Assembly (NCBI GenBank): GCA_965601925.1
Contig: OZ271854.1
Coordinates: 736,001 to 800,000 of the forward strand
Direction: 5' to 3'
Length of the DNA stretch: 64,000 nucleotides
Source: Alkalispirochaeta sp.
Lineage (GTDB): Bacteria > Spirochaetota > Spirochaetia > DSM-27196 > Alkalispirochaetaceae
In this document: piece by piece, positions 13,167 to 21,180 of the stretch
Position numbering within the stretch: position 1 is the first letter of the stretch
Layout of the letters: each line of letters begins with the position of its first letter
Position numbers and translations under genes: made by a program
The notes under the pieces: generated by a model
Told to the model about the DNA's origin: nothing
The model's database searches: none
Seen by the model: only the letters and a program-made list of their open reading frames with translations

Positions 13167-13832
13167 TTAGCCCACGGTAACCCGGGTTTCAGGAGCGGTC
13201 AAGGAAAATAGTGCCGTTGCGACGGTTTCCAATTCCATTTTTATTGTATTGGTACAAGGCGTCAAAAAAATGGTAATTGTCCCACGTCTTGAATCGACGC
13301 CGATTTGGTTAATATTCGGCGCGGGAATGAGGTGCGGTACCGTCTCGCGCAGTCTGCTCGCCACTACGGCATTGAAGGAGAAGAGACGAAATCGCCGTCC
13401 CTCGGTAACCAGGCGCTCCTCGTTCCACTCTTCGTCTCGTTCTACCGCCGACCACCGCGATCGGTGAGCCGTTTCGTGTACAAGAGTACCGACTCCGGGC
13501 GGCAACACGTCTCGGCAAAAAAAAGTCAACTTGAGCAGGTCACTGCGACCGAGGAGTCGGGCGATCGGCATATAGAGCGGCGCATAGCGCGGCAGCGTCG
13601 TGACGACGCCGTGGAGAGACGCAATCGGACCGTCCAGATCGTACTCGAACCCGTAGCCGATTCCCCGTCCCAGCGGGACGTAGTCGGTCCGCCGGGGGCG
13701 AAAGCACTCCTCGACGGCCGTTATGATCGCGGTCGTGAGGCGTGCATTGTGACGAAGGCCGAGTCTGAACGCTACCGCAAACGCGAGGGCCGACACGACG
13801 AAGAACGCAGCCATGGGTGGAAGATACCGCAT
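13167..13832 (-). CDS. Single-pass membrane protein, paralog of 9300-10019
   Basis: C-terminal 221 aa of the 13167-14483 ORF: TM then GLRHNAR, TTLPRYAPLYMP..L.GRSD; start inferred (13814 is an alternative). Confidence 0.75.
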   Translation of the reverse strand: MRYLPPMAAFFVVSALAFAVAFRLGLRHNARLTTAIITAVEECFRPRRTDYVPLGRGIGYGFEYDLDGPIASLHGVVTTLPRYAPLYMPIARLLGRSDLLKLTFFCRDVLPPGVGTLVHETAHRSRWSAVERDEEWNEERLVTEGRRFRLFSFNAVVASRLRETVPHLIPAPNINQIGVDSRRGTITIFLTPCTNTIKMELETVATALFSLTAPETRVTVG

Positions 13833-13892
13833 TACGAACCGCAGGACCACGATCGGCGACACCGCCGGTATCCTCGTGTACAATTCCACGCG

Positions 13893-14549
13893 ATGCAATC
13901 CGTTATATTCGATATGGACGGCGTTATCGTCGACAGCGAGCCGACGCATTTTCGTCTGGAGCGGGAACTCTTTCACAGGTTGGGACTGGTCATAGATGAC
14001 GCCGAGCACGAGCGTTACGTCGGCACGAACGCTCGGGGTATGCTCGAAGAGATCGCCCGTCGCCATGGAGCCGCGTGGGAACGTCACGGTATGACGATCG
14101 ACGATGTAGTAGAGGACGAGTATCGTCGCTATCAGGAGCAATTGATCGCCGGAGCGGTGCCCTTCGTATCGGGTGCCGTGGAGGTGATACGCGATCTCTC
14201 CCGTGCGGGTTGGAAACTGGCGATCGCCTCCTCGGCGCCGCACAGCCAGATAGACGAGGTGGTACGGCAAGCCGAGCTCGACGATATCGTCGAGTGTCGG
14301 ATAAGCGGCGACGATGTGGAACGTAGCAAACCGGACCCTGCCATCTTTCTGAGGACGGCGGCGTGTCTCGGTAGCGCGCCGTCGGAGTGTTGGGTGGTCG
14401 AAGACTCGGAAAACGGAGTGCGCGCCGCTGTTGCCGCCGGAATGGTATGCATCGGCTTCCGCAACGGTAGCTCGGGCCGTCAAAACGTGAGCGCCGCCGC
14501 CTACGTGGCCGATACCATGCCGGAGGTGGCGCGCATTCTCGCGATATAG
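13893..14549 (+). CDS. HAD-superfamily phosphatase (beta-PGM/CbbY-like)
   Basis: IFDMDGVIVDSE, ASS, KPDPAIF, VEDSENG; start trimmed to MQSVIFD, TACAAT 8 nt upstream. Confidence 0.9.
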   Translation: MQSVIFDMDGVIVDSEPTHFRLERELFHRLGLVIDDAEHERYVGTNARGMLEEIARRHGAAWERHGMTIDDVVEDEYRRYQEQLIAGAVPFVSGAVEVIRDLSRAGWKLAIASSAPHSQIDEVVRQAELDDIVECRISGDDVERSKPDPAIFLRTAACLGSAPSECWVVEDSENGVRAAVAAGMVCIGFRNGSSGRQNVSAAAYVADTMPEVARILAI

Positions 14550-14668
14550 CGCGAGAGTTCGAGTCTTCGCATCCCTTGGTGTATCTTAGTGACGTCGCCC
14601 GGCAGGAACACTCCTTCTTCGTATCGGGCGACGACTCGAAGGTATCTTTGGAATAGGAGCGTAGTATC

Positions 14669-15433
14669 ATGAGCACCGCATTATTCTCTCTGGACGGCAA
14701 GAGGGCGCTCGTAACCGGATCGACCCAAGGCATCGGACGGTCGCTCGCCCGCGGGCTTGCCGAGGCGGGGGCGACGGTGATTCTCAACGGAAGGACCGCA
14801 GCGAAGGTAGACGCCGCCGTCGAGGAGTTGCGCGCCGAGGGACTATCGGCCGAGGGTGCGGCGTTCGACGTGACGGATGAGAGGTCGGTGACGCGGGGTA
14901 TCGAGGAGATCGTATCGAGCGGAACGATCGATGTCCTCGTGAACAACGCCGGCGGCACGGTGCGCAAGCCGGTCCACGAACTCTCGTTCGACGAGTGGCG
15001 TCGCGTCCTGGACCTCAACCTCAACGGCGCATTTCTCACGACCCGCGCCGTGGTGCCGTCTATGATCGAAGGCAAGGCGGGCAAGATCATCAACACGTGT
15101 TCTCTCATGAGCGATATCGCTCGCGAACAGAACACGCCGTACGCCGCGAGCAAGGGCGGGATGCGCATGTTCACCCGCGCCTTGGCGGTGGAGCTCGGTC
15201 CTCACAACATCCAGGTGAACGGCATCGGCCCGGGCTACTTCGTCACCCCGCTTACGAAAGTCCTCCAGGAGAACCGTGAGTTCGACTCCTGGCTCAAGCG
15301 GCGCACCCCTATGGCGCGATGGGGCAGGGTCGAGGAACTCGTGGGGGCGGCGGTGTATCTGGCGAGCCCGGCGAGCAGCTTTGTGTCGGGACAGATTCTC
15401 TATGTGGACGGGGGATTCACCGCGGCGATGTAA
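14669..15433 (+). CDS. idnO: Gluconate 5-dehydrogenase-like SDR
   Basis: TGSTQGIG, NNAG, YAASKGG, QVNGIGPGYF, RTPMARWG, GQILYVDGG; AGGAG RBS. Confidence 0.8.
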   Translation: MSTALFSLDGKRALVTGSTQGIGRSLARGLAEAGATVILNGRTAAKVDAAVEELRAEGLSAEGAAFDVTDERSVTRGIEEIVSSGTIDVLVNNAGGTVRKPVHELSFDEWRRVLDLNLNGAFLTTRAVVPSMIEGKAGKIINTCSLMSDIAREQNTPYAASKGGMRMFTRALAVELGPHNIQVNGIGPGYFVTPLTKVLQENREFDSWLKRRTPMARWGRVEELVGAAVYLASPASSFVSGQILYVDGGFTAAM

Positions 15434-15694: not shown

Positions 15695-16218
15695 TCAACT
15701 AAAAAGGAAAAAAATCCAAGCGCCGCTGCTGGTCGGCGTAGTGGCCGTATATACTTCCTAATTCCCTGAGACGCTATAAATGACTGCATTCCAGCCTGCG
15801 GAAAGAGCCATGTTGTCGAGTATCGTCGCCTGGGTCATTTTGGCATTTGTGTTCGAACTAGTAACATCGATACTAAACTCCTCGGCAGTTGTGCCGAGTT
15901 CACTTTCATTGGGGGCATCGCCGGATAAGATCAGGATAGCGTCGTCGCTACTGTCGGTATCAAGTGTCTCAGTATTTGTCGAAAGAAAAAAGTACGTCCC
16001 GGCGCGTGTTCATGAGCTCCATATGTGGTGATAACATCACCATCGAATTCGGCTTGAGTCGGGATCGTTACATCGGTATCAAGTGTATCGCCTACGGCCC
16101 CGGGGCCCAGCCCTCCCCAGCCCACGCCGTTCTCGTCGTCCTCACCTAAGAGATCGCACGCTGAGAGTCCGACGAACGTGACCAAACAGAGCGCCACAAG
16201 CTTAAGATGGTTTCGCAT
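15695..16218 (-). pseudogene. Decayed paralog of the adjacent lipoprotein
   Basis: Starts MRNHLKLVAL..GLSACDLLG; frameshift at T6 run (15986-15991); continues LDTDSSDDAIL...LSAGWNAVIY; about 41-aa internal deletion; in-frame TAG at 15758-15760 before GAWIF. Confidence 0.8.
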
Positions 16219-16700
16219 CAGTGATGCCTCCTGGTGTGTCGTGCTGAAGATTCTTAATGTGTCGTGATCGAACGTCAATGTATCGCGACAGAAAAAAATA
16301 GGTATTTTTATTAATTTAAATTAATTTATATTATAATTTTTTAGCGTCGTTTTCAATGATCATAGCGTTCCGACTGACGGCGGCAGCCAAGTCGAAATCG
16401 GTCTACTCAGTGTTACTCCCGTTAGTGTCAACCACGCGCTATTACACTCGCCACCGGATATGTGAAAGCACTCGAACTCTCTCGACAGTGCTCAGATAAC
16501 CGAGATCAAAACGGTGTCAGTTCGCCGCATCCGTTACTAAAGACTCAAAGAGCATAGGAAGTTCGACAAGCTTGCCTTTAAGGTGATGAAATGAGGAACA
16601 AATATGACAAGCGAGCGCACCAAAAAAACTCCTGTGGCATATGATGATCACACCACAGGAGTGTCTTGTCACTAATCGGTGAATTGATTCAATCGCAACC

Positions 16701-17351
16701 TTAGGGCTCGAAGGTCCAAGCGCCGCTAATACCGGACGGTATAGAGTTGGTATACCCGCTACTGTCAGGTGAGGACACATAAATCACGACATTCCAGCCG
16801 GCAGCAAGCGAAATGTTGAAGTCATCGAACCCATCACTGCCGCCAAGCTCCGTTGCCTCCGATGAGTATATATATACCTCGTAGTATTCAGTAACGGTAC
16901 TGAAAACGGCGTGATAAAAACGGACAGGATCAAAAGTGTCACTCTCAATCTCCGCCTCAAGAATTCTCGCGTCCGTGTTAGTACTGGTCACACCAACCCC
17001 AAAAACATTAGCTGGAGTATCTAAAAGAGTAGCGTCCGGCACACCCGTCGAGAGCATAAGGACGGCGTCATCCGACGTATCGGTATCAAGAATCGTGAAG
17101 CTTCGGGCGTCGAACAACTCGTAGTCGCGGCCCGGCGTGTGCTGATACGCAACAAATAACTCATCTTGGGAAGTTCCATCGAAATTGACTTCGCGCGTCA
17201 CCGTCGCGTTGATACTGAGCGTATCGCCCAAAGCCCCGGGTCCAAGTCCTCCCCAACTCGCGTCGTCGTCATCGTCGCCGAGAAGATCGCACGCCGAAAG
17301 TCCTATAAAGGTGATCAGCAAAAGCGCCACAAGTTTAAGATTGCTTCGCAT
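16701..17351 (-). CDS. Acidic lipoprotein of unknown function
   Basis: Lipobox GLSA-C, acidic tether DDDDD, beta-rich mature part with LAAGWN; AGGAGG RBS. Confidence 0.85.
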   Translation of the reverse strand: MRSNLKLVALLLITFIGLSACDLLGDDDDDASWGGLGPGALGDTLSINATVTREVNFDGTSQDELFVAYQHTPGRDYELFDARSFTILDTDTSDDAVLMLSTGVPDATLLDTPANVFGVGVTSTNTDARILEAEIESDTFDPVRFYHAVFSTVTEYYEVYIYSSEATELGGSDGFDDFNISLAAGWNVVIYVSSPDSSGYTNSIPSGISGAWTFEP

Positions 17352-18724: not shown

Positions 18725-21007
18725 CTACTCACTCGCCTCATCGTCGAGTCGAAACGAGGAGACGAGGGACTCCTGAAAGGAGGCCATCGCCGAGAGTTCC
18801 TGCGCCGTGAGGGCGACGGCGTCGATCTGACCGTGTAGCTTCTCGCCGGCGTCGCTTACCGCATCAAATTGTCTACCGTTCTCACGGTGAATTTCGGTTA
18901 ACGATTTGATCGTCGTTGCAACGCTCTGCGCGTTCTCCTCCATCTGCGAGAGGTCTCCAAGCACACTCTGCATCTTGGTGCGATTCGTTGACGCACTCTC
19001 GTCGATGGCGAGGAGCCGCTTCTCCGCTTCGGAGACGCTCTCGGCGCTGGAGGAGATCACCTCGATCTCCTCTTCGGCGCGCTCCGCGGTCTGTTCGGTT
19101 GCGCTCACGATCTCCTCCAAAAGGCCCGTAATCCGCTCCGTCGCACGACTCGATTGCTCCGAGAGGGCGCGTATCTCGTGGGCGACGACGGAAAACCCGG
19201 CTCCCGCCTCACCGGCGCGTGCCGCCTCGATCGATGCGTTCATTGCGAGCAAATGCGTTTGAGCGGAGATACTTTCGATCGTGCCGATGGTGGTACGAAT
19301 CTCCTGCGAGCGATCAACGAGTTTGTCGATCAGATCCCGCGTCGCATGCGCCGAGACCGAAACGCGTTCGCCGGCGGTCCGTGACGCCAGAATGGCTTCG
19401 CGACCGGATCGAGCAGTCTCGGCTACCCGCTCCGCACGTTGTGCGGCGGCTCGCGTCTCTTCGGCGACGTTGCCCACCAGTTGTACCAACCGCTCCATCG
19501 CTGCGTCGGCATCTTCAACGCGCTCCTGTTGATCGTTGAGCGCCGCGTGGACGCTCCGGAGGGTCGTATCGATACGCGCGGTTGCGGCTTGCGACTCGCC
19601 GGCGCCGGCGTTGAGCACATCACCGATCTTGGCCACGCGCCCCGCCTGCTCCTCGACCCCCAGGATCATGCCGCGTAAGTTGGACGGTTCCTGATTGTAG
19701 GTCGCCACGCGCAGGCCACGTTTGGCCGCGCGATTTACGATCGGGATGAGACGATCGCTGAAGATGGGAATCGCAAATCCGTCGAAACGCTCCGCCTCCA
19801 ACCGCTCGACCATCTCGGTCCATGAGGCTATATCGTAGGCGCTACGGCTCTTCGGCGGTAGCACAACCTCCACGGTACAGCCGCGTTCGACCAAAAGACG
19901 TTGCGCCGCAAGGGCCCCTTTGTAGACCGGCGGCCAAAAATCGTGGTTTTTGGGAATGAGAAAGGCGAGTTTGAGATGTCGGGCACTCGTCGGATTCACC
20001 GCCTCGGCGAGTCCAACCGATTCCTCGTCGACTCCCAAGAGAGTGCGAAAGTTTTCGGGGGTAATGACCGTGGGCGATACGAGCAGCTTCGGTTTCTCCG
20101 GATGCCAGGAGGAGGAAAGTGTGTTGTACAGATGTATCAGCGGGTTATACCCCTGCAGGTAAGGGCTTTGGGTTATCGTCCGCGTAAGGTACCCGGACTC
20201 GAAATACGGGGCGAACTCCGATCGCTTTCCGTGTCCGAAGAACGGTATCGTCCCGGGCTTGGCGCCGTTCATAAGAGCGTTGAGACCCGCGATCGTCGTC
20301 GCCTCCTCCAGCTGATAGATCGCCGACAAATCGGGATGACGCCGGAGGAGATCCTCGATACCGGCCGTCGTCTTCGCGGCGTCGCGGTCGGTGTGTACGG
20401 TGCCCGCGATCGTGACGTGCGGAAAGCGAGTCCCCACGGCGTGGACAAAACCCCGTTCGCGGAGTACCGAATAGTTCGTATCGTCATTGACCGCGACAAT
20501 GCCGACGCTCCCGCGGCCGCCGAGAAACGAACCGACTATCGTTCCCATGCGTTGGCCGTGTTGATAATCGTCGATGCCGGTATAACAGACGCGCCGGATC
20601 GGCTCGCCGGTGAGGCTGTTGAGCCCTTGCGCCGCGCGTTCCACCGCCTCTCCGGCGGCGGCGAGGGAGCGATGCACCGTTGAAAACTCACGCGGTCGTG
20701 ACGAGGCGAAAGCCGAAACGTCGACCGAGGCGGTGACGCACATATTGCCTCGGGCGATCTCCCACACGGCGCGCCCGAGCGGCTCGACTCCCGAGGTTCT
20801 GAGCGTTTCCATCGCGTCGTGAAGGGCGCGGACACCGCGCAGGTAGCGAAAAAAGAGAAGCCGCAGCGCCGCTAACAGGCTTATGACGGATACAAGCGCG
20901 AAGCCTACGATCACCACATCCGGACCCATACGAACAATCGAACGCGCCAGCAATACGAGGACGCCGAGCAGCGCCGCCGGCAGGTAGACGAATACCTTTT
21001 TACCCAC
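18725..21007 (-). CDS. Methyl-accepting chemotaxis protein with internal permuted sugar-binding domain
   Basis: 2 N-terminal TMs, HAMP-like segment, RbsB-like halves, MA hairpin [36 protein letters not shown], acidic C-terminal tail. Confidence 0.9.
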
Positions 21008-21040
21008 TGATGTAACCTCACATACGTGATGTTACATCAG
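21007..21040. promoter_or_regulatory. Long inverted repeat over the RBS/promoter of the MCP gene
   Basis: CTGATGTAAC-c-TCAC-atac-GTGA-t-GTTACATCAG; minus-strand TTTACG-17-TATGCT promoter abuts it. Confidence 0.65.
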
Positions 21041-21180
21041 CATAACACGACCCCTATACGCCGTAAACGACAAAAGTTCACCAAGAAATAACAGACGTTC
21101 AACATGAAATCGATCCGAACTGAGGGGGCCCGCGAAGCGGTAAAAGGGCGTGCGGCGTGTCGCGACATCAACGTACGCAC

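Follow-up and report, generated by a model that had tools for sequence, protein, structure and literature searches.

A gene in the window (the whole stretch of 64,000 nucleotides analysed here) raised the question of how a sugar-binding protein can lie inside a chemoreceptor with its two parts in reversed order, and what such a receptor would sense. The gene (18725-21007, minus strand), recognised from its open reading frame and Pfam, encodes a methyl-accepting chemotaxis protein (MCP) of 760 amino acid residues and starts with GTG, with GAGG 8 nt upstream. The order of its parts was two transmembrane (TM) helices, HAMP, the C-part of a periplasmic binding protein (PBP; aa 137-324), a linker, the N-part of the same fold (aa 345-441), and the methyl-accepting rod. 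The rod, a coiled-coil hairpin delimited by Pfam, arm lengths, and a structure model (aa 444-752; 18752-19678, minus strand), turns at E600 and has a C-terminal arm of 152 residues. MCPsignal of Pfam matched aa 554-705 with 92.9 bits (curated cut-off, 34.6), and one match to a methylation-site consensus was found at aa 627-636; no C-terminal pentapeptide was seen at the end of the receptor. The protein was the sole one of its kind among the 38 MCP-like ORFs of the genome, which carries three matches to the CheA dimerisation domain, nine to the CheW domain, and three CheD. Of the contigs from three runs of one sample, two covered the stretch unbroken and without differences; as this sample may be the source of the DNA itself, they were given no weight as support.

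Around the receptor start, a 36-nt hairpin (stems of 11 and 4 bp; 21006-21041, minus strand) overlaps the ribosome site (GAGG) and extends into the GTG start codon, and a region of 111 nt was more stable than all of 200 shuffles (folding z = -3.7). The hairpin was unique in the genome and absent from the upstream regions of eight orthologues. A sigma-70 scan returned no promoter. Six orthologues (L004-L006 and L008-L010) carry TTGCAC-17 nt-TAAC about 40 nt upstream of the start, ending about 10 nt before ATG; this element appears promoter-like and would be nearly leaderless. An imperfect TCAC-N4-GTG palindrome within its spacer was considered as an operator and rejected, no genome-wide enrichment being found in the source genome.

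The original prediction had been that of a natural circular permutation of a type I binding protein folding as one two-lobed domain, and the eight motifs it quoted were all present (aa 139-151, 183-187, 220-231, 277-287, 314-319, 346-365, 409-413, and 427-438). Two partial Peripla_BP matches in reverse order, which it had foreseen, were obtained with Peripla_BP_4 of Pfam: aa 136-289 corresponded to model positions 92-246 (E of 3.8e-27 for the whole protein), and the later piece, scanned alone, to positions 8-93 (E of 3.9e-5; 23.7 bits, under the cut-off of 35.1). When a profile of the clade (ten sequences) was aligned with GanP (6gq0), profile positions 28-181 corresponded to residues 125-277 of the chain and positions 232-332 to residues 27-122; the two pieces, both significant, abut in swapped order. 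The canonical C-part (20036-20599, minus strand), which contains strand 5, the whole C-lobe, and the hinges, was assigned by Pfam, PDB, and structure alignment, and the canonical N-part (19685-19975, minus strand), which contains strands 1-4 of the N-lobe, by Pfam, PDB, and the model.

An AlphaFold model of aa 51-480, built with 132 alignment rows, gave the single two-lobed domain that had been anticipated (pLDDT, 95.7; pTM, 0.91). In an order-dependent alignment, a permutation is expected to leave canonical proteins partially aligned and to let TpMglB-2, itself a permutant, align across both halves. Canonical binding proteins aligned on model residues about 86-275 (~185 residues; Z of 22-24), and glucose-bound TpMglB-2 (6bgc) over residues 77-379 (280 residues, or 282 in a second alignment; rmsd of 3.2 Å; Z of 22.1). 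The Foldseek TM value was 0.52 for the glucose-bound TpMglB-2 chain and 0.44 for the apo form (5jx2), so that the model appears closed-like; since AlphaFold is inclined to holo states, as PMC11213343 states, this carries no information on binding. Two alpha/beta lobes with a hinged cleft (the Type I, Cluster B fold) were seen in the model and the structure alignments. On the other hand, the canonical strand order, with N-lobe strands 1-4 first, was reversed, and the domain was not an extracytoplasmic stand-alone chain, but was fused between HAMP and the rod. In a noisy covariation analysis (effective depth of 189) whose alignment shared sequences with the model input, 32 of the top 100 pairs joined the two halves; covarying pairs were C141-A435 across the cut and Q280-N438 and Q280-F357 in the pocket. 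The best ESM Atlas scores were 0.75-0.76, which, being below 0.9, serve as leads only, and two of the clusters carried MCPsignal together with Peripla_BP_4. No solved structure with the same cut was present among the top 50 matches of the structure searches.

Hydrophobic segments were confined to aa 1-56 (maximum KD19 of 2.52, versus 1.32 for the rest). By hydropathy, TM helix 1 spans aa 2-26 (20930-21004, minus strand) and TM helix 2 aa 30-52 (20852-20920, minus strand), the latter followed by basic residues; a full-length model had helices at aa 2-26 and 31-85 joined by a loop of 4 residues, in accordance with the two adjacent TM helices and nearly absent periplasmic loop described originally. 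The HAMP-like segment noted after them was also borne out, as a divergent HAMP that covers roughly aa 70-123 and whose second helix continues to aa 132 (20612-20800, minus strand; family segments, profile, and model): 53 of 60 aligned family segments matched PF00672 at E up to 0.1 (best, 8.6e-9), although the query's own segment had no Pfam HAMP match. A profile of these family segments matched HAMP-containing structures and fell right after the last TM helix of other receptors in the genome. The N-part runs straight into the coiled coil, as originally described, the helix of the full-length model being continuous from aa 444 to the tip.

A signalling tip must be cytoplasmic to bind CheA and CheW. 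Among the 76 full-length relatives that passed filters (from the first 155 proteins), 70 had a hydrophobic segment before HAMP and none had one between the domain and the tip; therefore, the domain is placed in the cytoplasm, as the original prediction held. An artefact or a periplasmic domain, in favour of which nothing was seen, is hardly credible: there is one open frame, the same order was found in nine other genomes of the order and in other phyla, and no membrane segment separates the domain from the tip. We regard it as practically certain that the domain is permuted, folded, and cytoplasmic.

The permuted module comprised about 140 clusters at 50% identity from at least six phyla, and a profile search returned 143 representatives at E up to 1e-30. 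A full-domain match was found in 9 of 98 other genomes of the order, all in the source family; one further genome of this family had a partial match, and another family of the order contained a diverged member. Close cluster members were named Alkalispirochaetaceae or Spirochaetaceae. Of 158 proteins, 120 consisted of C-part, N-part, and MA and 22 of C-part and N-part, and the remainder were fragments or canonical or tandem proteins. In a genome scan, 241 related stretches of 273 were collected, of which the best 79 loci held 74 complete ORFs of permuted order, while the other 162 may include canonical proteins; these 79 loci, all metagenome bins, were from Bacteroidota/Ignavibacteria/Kryptonia, Chloroflexota, Acidobacteriota, Fibrobacterota, and KSB1 records. 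The permuted order was kept in 114 of 114 further matches. At two of the 79 loci (L039:4944-7321 and L059:4472-7045), the receptor gene lies in two frames or pieces, either by assembly error or as a pseudogene.

Among 30 proteins scanned for other outputs, the module preceded GGDEF (four, one with GAF), kinase-receiver-AraC (one), SpoIIE (one), and AraC (two), each joined through the helix after the N-x-E junction, and a further search yielded at least eight more AraC fusions. This placement upstream of GGDEF, kinase, SpoIIE, and AraC outputs is as would be expected of a portable input. P0105, P0145, and P0295-P0302 were membrane-anchored AraC regulators with HAMP and the permuted domain, and nine top matches shared this Pfam set. 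P0015 and P0040 are near kin with the same, apparently TM-less N-terminus and with MCP and SpoIIE outputs, respectively, an apparent case of output swapping; P0040 is on a 2.6-kb contig, and part of its C-half is missing.

Neighbourhoods gave no clue to the ligand: no conserved transporter or sugar enzyme was found among the 79 loci, and the best sugar-related neighbour cluster, a FGGY kinase, was present at 5. The largest neighbour cluster was of receiver-domain/two-component genes (22/79 loci), and CheW was found at 5/79. The neighbours in the window (cupin, GNAT, methyltransferase, phosphoribosyltransferase, SDR, and HAD) were not common to the related loci. At 13305-15433 (plus strand), 3-5 kb from the receptor, lie a gene for a HAD-family hydrolase and then one for a short-chain dehydrogenase, which are absent from related loci; the latter resembles gluconate 5-dehydrogenase. 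Two related lipoprotein-like genes with near-identical N-termini were found at 15780-17351 (minus strand), the 216-aa copy having no Pfam match, and the second (15931-16278) appears split from 15780-16031.

The break lies in the strand-4/strand-5 loop, as had been proposed, and could be located more closely. In the numbering of E. coli MglB, N91-K-E-P closes the N-part, and residue 104 is the first of the C-part. The input junction, T133-x-x-P136-x-x-R139 (20591-20611, minus strand), which would derive from the intact loop of an unpermuted ancestor, had a T133-R139 spacing of 6 in 126 of 126 rows having both residues; the output junction, T436-x-N438-x-E440-P441-x-x-L444-R445 (19673-19702, minus strand), had a T436-R445 spacing of 9 in 127 of 127. 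When the two junction motifs were sought without an alignment, 97 and 86 of 132 proteins matched and no shifted form was seen, and conservation of the two junctions (0.62 and 0.61) was similar to that of the signalling tip (0.62). The circularising linker from the old C-terminus to the old N-terminus (aa 325-344; 19976-20035, minus strand), on the other hand, varied in length, N319-L347 spanning 26-41 residues across the family; it resembled the N-terminal tether of unpermuted relatives. Invariant spacing and conservation at the junctions, against a variable linker and TM region, fit rigid coupling.

Unpermuted near kin were found by profile search, and a further search enlarged the set to 624 proteins (E up to 1e-40), 120 of them being examined. 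Judged by sequence, the closest are Chloroflexota sugar ABC binding lipoproteins (named members from Anaerolineae and Caldilineae; P0110 and P0166-P0284). With the family profiles, they reached 220-230 bits for the C-part and 105-110 bits for the N-part, equalling or exceeding the query itself (197.5 and 105.9); they differ in their canonical order and mostly lipoprotein-like leaders (53 of 80 single-domain unpermuted rows). Their N-x-E-T-x5-R loop was intact in 133 of 133 loop matches, with a T-to-R spacing of 6. Because this spacing is the same in the receptor, the ancestral chain was opened exactly between the equivalents of E440 and T133, without loss of any residue. A quick C-part tree was built from 77 rows, including six outgroups and 54 permuted rows out of 127 that qualified (38 of the 54 chosen at random). 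Permuted and sister rows grouped against the outgroups (97); the unpermuted sisters fell together on a single branch (99) in the midst of the permuted rows, and a long branch led to the query clade. Grouping the permuted rows together was not rejected (p-AU, 0.60), and the tree thus allows a single origin of the module.

If the halves were remnants of a tandem duplication, or were exchanged between the subunits of a dimer, no domain would arise within a single chain. Tandem duplication is frequent in the unpermuted relatives (122 rows held 27 full and 10 partial cases), and a domain swap would be compatible with a monomer model; however, the pieces are exactly complementary, with neither overlap nor gap at the cut, their order is fixed in the 120 proteins, 74 ORFs, and 114 matches given above, and the pTM of the model is high, which together make this explanation very improbable. 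Dimer prediction for aa 51-480 scored 0.21 against a mark of 0.42 and counts neither for nor against a swap. The extant tandem duplicates were also considered as the direct intermediate and rejected: their repeats are nearly identical, suggesting recent duplication, and the inter-repeat linker is 35-53 residues, versus mostly 25-31.

The only match listed that aligned across both halves, TpMglB-2 (Tp0684; 5jx2 and 6bgc), founded the "Type Ic / Cluster Bc" circularly permuted binding proteins, as described in PMC4990184. In both TpMglB-2 and the receptor, the fold is type I and strands of the N-lobe have been transferred to the C-terminal end, and TpMglB-2 demonstrates that a permutant of this kind is capable of sugar binding and closure. 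However, three strands were moved in TpMglB-2, leaving N19 (equivalent to N91 of MglB) near the N-terminus, according to PMC4990184, and four in the receptor family, with N438 (also equivalent to N91) at the C-end. The structural alignment stopped at aa 429 of the receptor, identity was 18%, and two sequence searches returned no match to TpMglB-2. TpMglB-2 is a stand-alone periplasmic ABC lipoprotein, whereas the permuted domain is part of a signalling protein, with no conserved ABC genes nearby. Of the features of Type Ic / Cluster Bc, the receptor has the N-lobe permutation, but neither the cut before strand 4 nor the ABC tethering, and the two permutants likely originated independently.

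What the domain binds was approached through ten glucose contacts of E. coli MglB tabulated in PMC4990184, which were mapped by profile alignment, the D14 and F16 positions via the RbsB piece and its extension. The resulting putative pocket comprises T177, Y179, R183, R208, E234, G260, and Q280 in the C-part (within 20036-20599) and D356, F357, W358, and N438 in the N-part. D356, W358, N438, R183, and Q280 match MglB or are conservative, and T177, Y179, R208, E234, and G260 differ. In the ten closest rows (42-88% identical), 10 of 10 pocket positions were invariant, versus 58 of 295 other columns (Fisher p, 1.8e-7). In 122 farther rows, by contrast, the ten positions as a set were not above background conservation (p, 0.17): R183 was kept in 119, D260 in 117, Q280 in 99, and N438 in 98 of 118, together with an aromatic residue at 358, while the equivalents of D14, H152, D154, and W183 varied and the C-lobe aromatic was absent family-wide. 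The same pattern at R183, D260, Q280, N438, and 358 was seen in 118 sister domains.

In the spirochaete clade, the equivalent of D236 is Gly260 (10 of 10 close rows), at a position where 117 of 122 farther rows and all 118 of the unpermuted relatives carry Asp, and the equivalent of W183 is Arg208. Besides Gly260, Arg208, Glu234, Tyr179, and Asp356 in the pocket, the clade has invariant Lys353, His259, Glu235, and Arg262. In RbsB, ribose is reportedly no longer bound when the corresponding Asp is lost (PMC5557919). The remodelled but invariant pocket suggests that the ligand in this clade is probably neither glucose nor ribose, and may be read as selected to fit another ligand. The basic residues gained point weakly to an anion, although the added acids blur the net charge; if binding occurs, an anionic ligand is possible, though doubtful. 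The replacement of Asp and of the aromatic, together with the long branch of the clade, could alternatively mean that the domain no longer binds a small molecule here and has become a structural spacer or a protein-docking surface. However, invariance of all ten pocket positions against 20% of other columns fits selection for a new ligand and not decay, and R183, Q280, N438, F357, and W358 are kept; we consider loss of binding quite unlikely and binding of a small molecule probable. The original prediction of a receptor for an intracellular sugar or metabolite held for the cytoplasmic location, but with Gly260 and Arg208 at the D236 and W183 positions, "sugar" is less safe than "small polar metabolite".

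The rod differs from those of the other receptors of this host. The distance from the tip to the terminal Phe was 152 residues in the permuted receptor and in no other MCP-like ORF, versus 165-166 in 22 of the 38, the rod being two heptads shorter per arm than in those 22. By arm length, we take the permuted receptor to be 44H and the longer ones 48H. The genome holds three CheA systems; 48H receptors go with F2 and 44H with F1, according to bioRxiv 2022.05.07.491037. The distances from the HAMP Asn to T133 (17) and from P441 to the tip (159) add up to 176, and three longer receptors gave 176-177, as estimated by eye; since the 159/152 form is the commonest in the family (35/72), this match may be due to chance.

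The best explanation, which we favour as reasonably likely, is a cytoplasmic metabolite-reading receptor with a permuted clamshell in its signalling rod. A membrane-anchored chemoreceptor without an outside sensor would gauge how much of a small polar metabolite the cytoplasm contains. As sequence and model show, a type I sugar-binding protein was opened between strands 4 and 5 of the N-lobe, its old ends were joined by a linker, and the permuted domain was inserted where the output helix of HAMP would otherwise pass into the methyl-accepting rod. The ligand, probably a neutral monosaccharide in most of the family and probably a different, possibly acidic or phosphorylated, sugar-like metabolite in the spirochaete clade, would close the cleft. 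Since Asn438 is six residues before the output helix and the strand after the input helix enters hinge 1, closure would shift the register or packing of both helices and of the N-lobes in the receptor dimer, and this shift would change CheA activity. LacI-type dimers, in which inducer shifts N-lobe packing, would be an analogue. We consider control of the kinase by ligand binding likely.

The original prediction had put the new ends side by side near the hinge, and they do lie close to the first hinge strand; its suggestion that closure could move the helices directly calls for refinement. Within the N-lobe, strand 4 lies next to strand 5, so that both new ends are on adjacent strands of one lobe and clamshell closure alone would not part them. 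We infer that coupling proceeds through the ligand-contacting Asn438 and the hinge strand or through dimer packing, the likely levers being Asn438, D146 (equivalent to the RbsB hinge residue D104), and lobe packing in the dimer.

In a receptor with two inputs, the main signal would instead arise at the membrane hairpin, from a partner membrane protein or the membrane state, and pass via HAMP, with the permuted domain as relay or modulator. The TM pair and HAMP are retained in most members (the N-terminal hydrophobic segment in the 70 of 76 noted above), spacing is no less rigid at the input than at the output junction, and P0036 carries an N-terminal MASE11 and a weak PAS ahead of the module. 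However, the TM region is the least conserved part of the receptor (modal frequency, 0.27), the number of TM helices differs between members (one, two, several, or apparently none), and no conserved neighbouring membrane gene was found among the 79 loci; we judge this alternative unlikely.

Chemoreceptors, type I binding folds, and one natural permutant with a different cut are already known. Canonical Peripla_BP_4 proteins (GanP 6gq0, the Thermotoga glucose/xylose-binding 2h3h/2qvc, XylFII 5xss, and E. coli RbsB and MglB) were the best sequence and structure matches and share the pocket Arg, Asn/Asp, and Gln and the N-lobe aromatics, but are unpermuted, extracytoplasmic, separate chains acting on transporters or receptors from outside. 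Aer resembles the receptor in having a membrane anchor without a periplasmic sensor, and Aer2 in having a sensor in line with HAMP domains; both use PAS domains with FAD or haem, whereas the insert here is a 305-residue clamshell. In the engineered PBP domain-insertion switches of PMC6335823, circular permutation and insertion likewise couple ligand binding to output, but these are artificial and mostly have the output inserted into the PBP, whereas the receptor has a permuted PBP in a host helix. PMC9602780 acknowledges SBP-like domains as sensors of signalling proteins in general terms. The architecture had originally been put forward as one not known to have been characterised; consistently, no description of the cut or the in-line architecture was found in the main texts of the largely open-access literature searched, and passages of PMC8050422, PMC8547431, PMC8694067, PMC12268683, PMC9602780, PMC11213343, and bioRxiv 2025.06.24.661292 contained none of the module, although domain-architecture tables in supplements or subscription papers could list the fusion.

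In the known route, solute-binding proteins drive chemoreceptors from outside the cell as separate partners; here, a solute-binding protein was brought inside, re-threaded, and built into the signalling rod. More tentatively, and with somewhat less than even confidence, the module may be an undescribed portable cytoplasmic cassette (HAMP, permuted clamshell, and output helix). Such a cassette would have arisen a single time, from a sugar ABC binding protein of the Chloroflexota type, and would give chemoreceptors, diguanylate cyclases, kinases, phosphatases, and membrane-bound AraC regulators a reading of sugar-metabolite pools inside the cell. In this clade, it would have been adapted to a charged metabolite and adjusted in length so as to join the main 48-heptad arrays of the host; it would then be a natural counterpart of the engineered domain-insertion switches. 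With the cut located exactly, an unpermuted sister family at hand, and a pocket specific to the clade, ligand and coupling are open to direct testing. If binding and signalling are true, the receptor would provide a direct molecular route to metabolism-dependent taxis for sugars, a new sensor-domain family hidden in Pfam as a partial Peripla_BP_4 match, and, for the construction of kinases, cyclases, and transcription factors gated by ligands, a cut site and a junction geometry already tried out in nature. The module is shared by several kinds of signalling protein and may be a general way of sensing internal metabolites.
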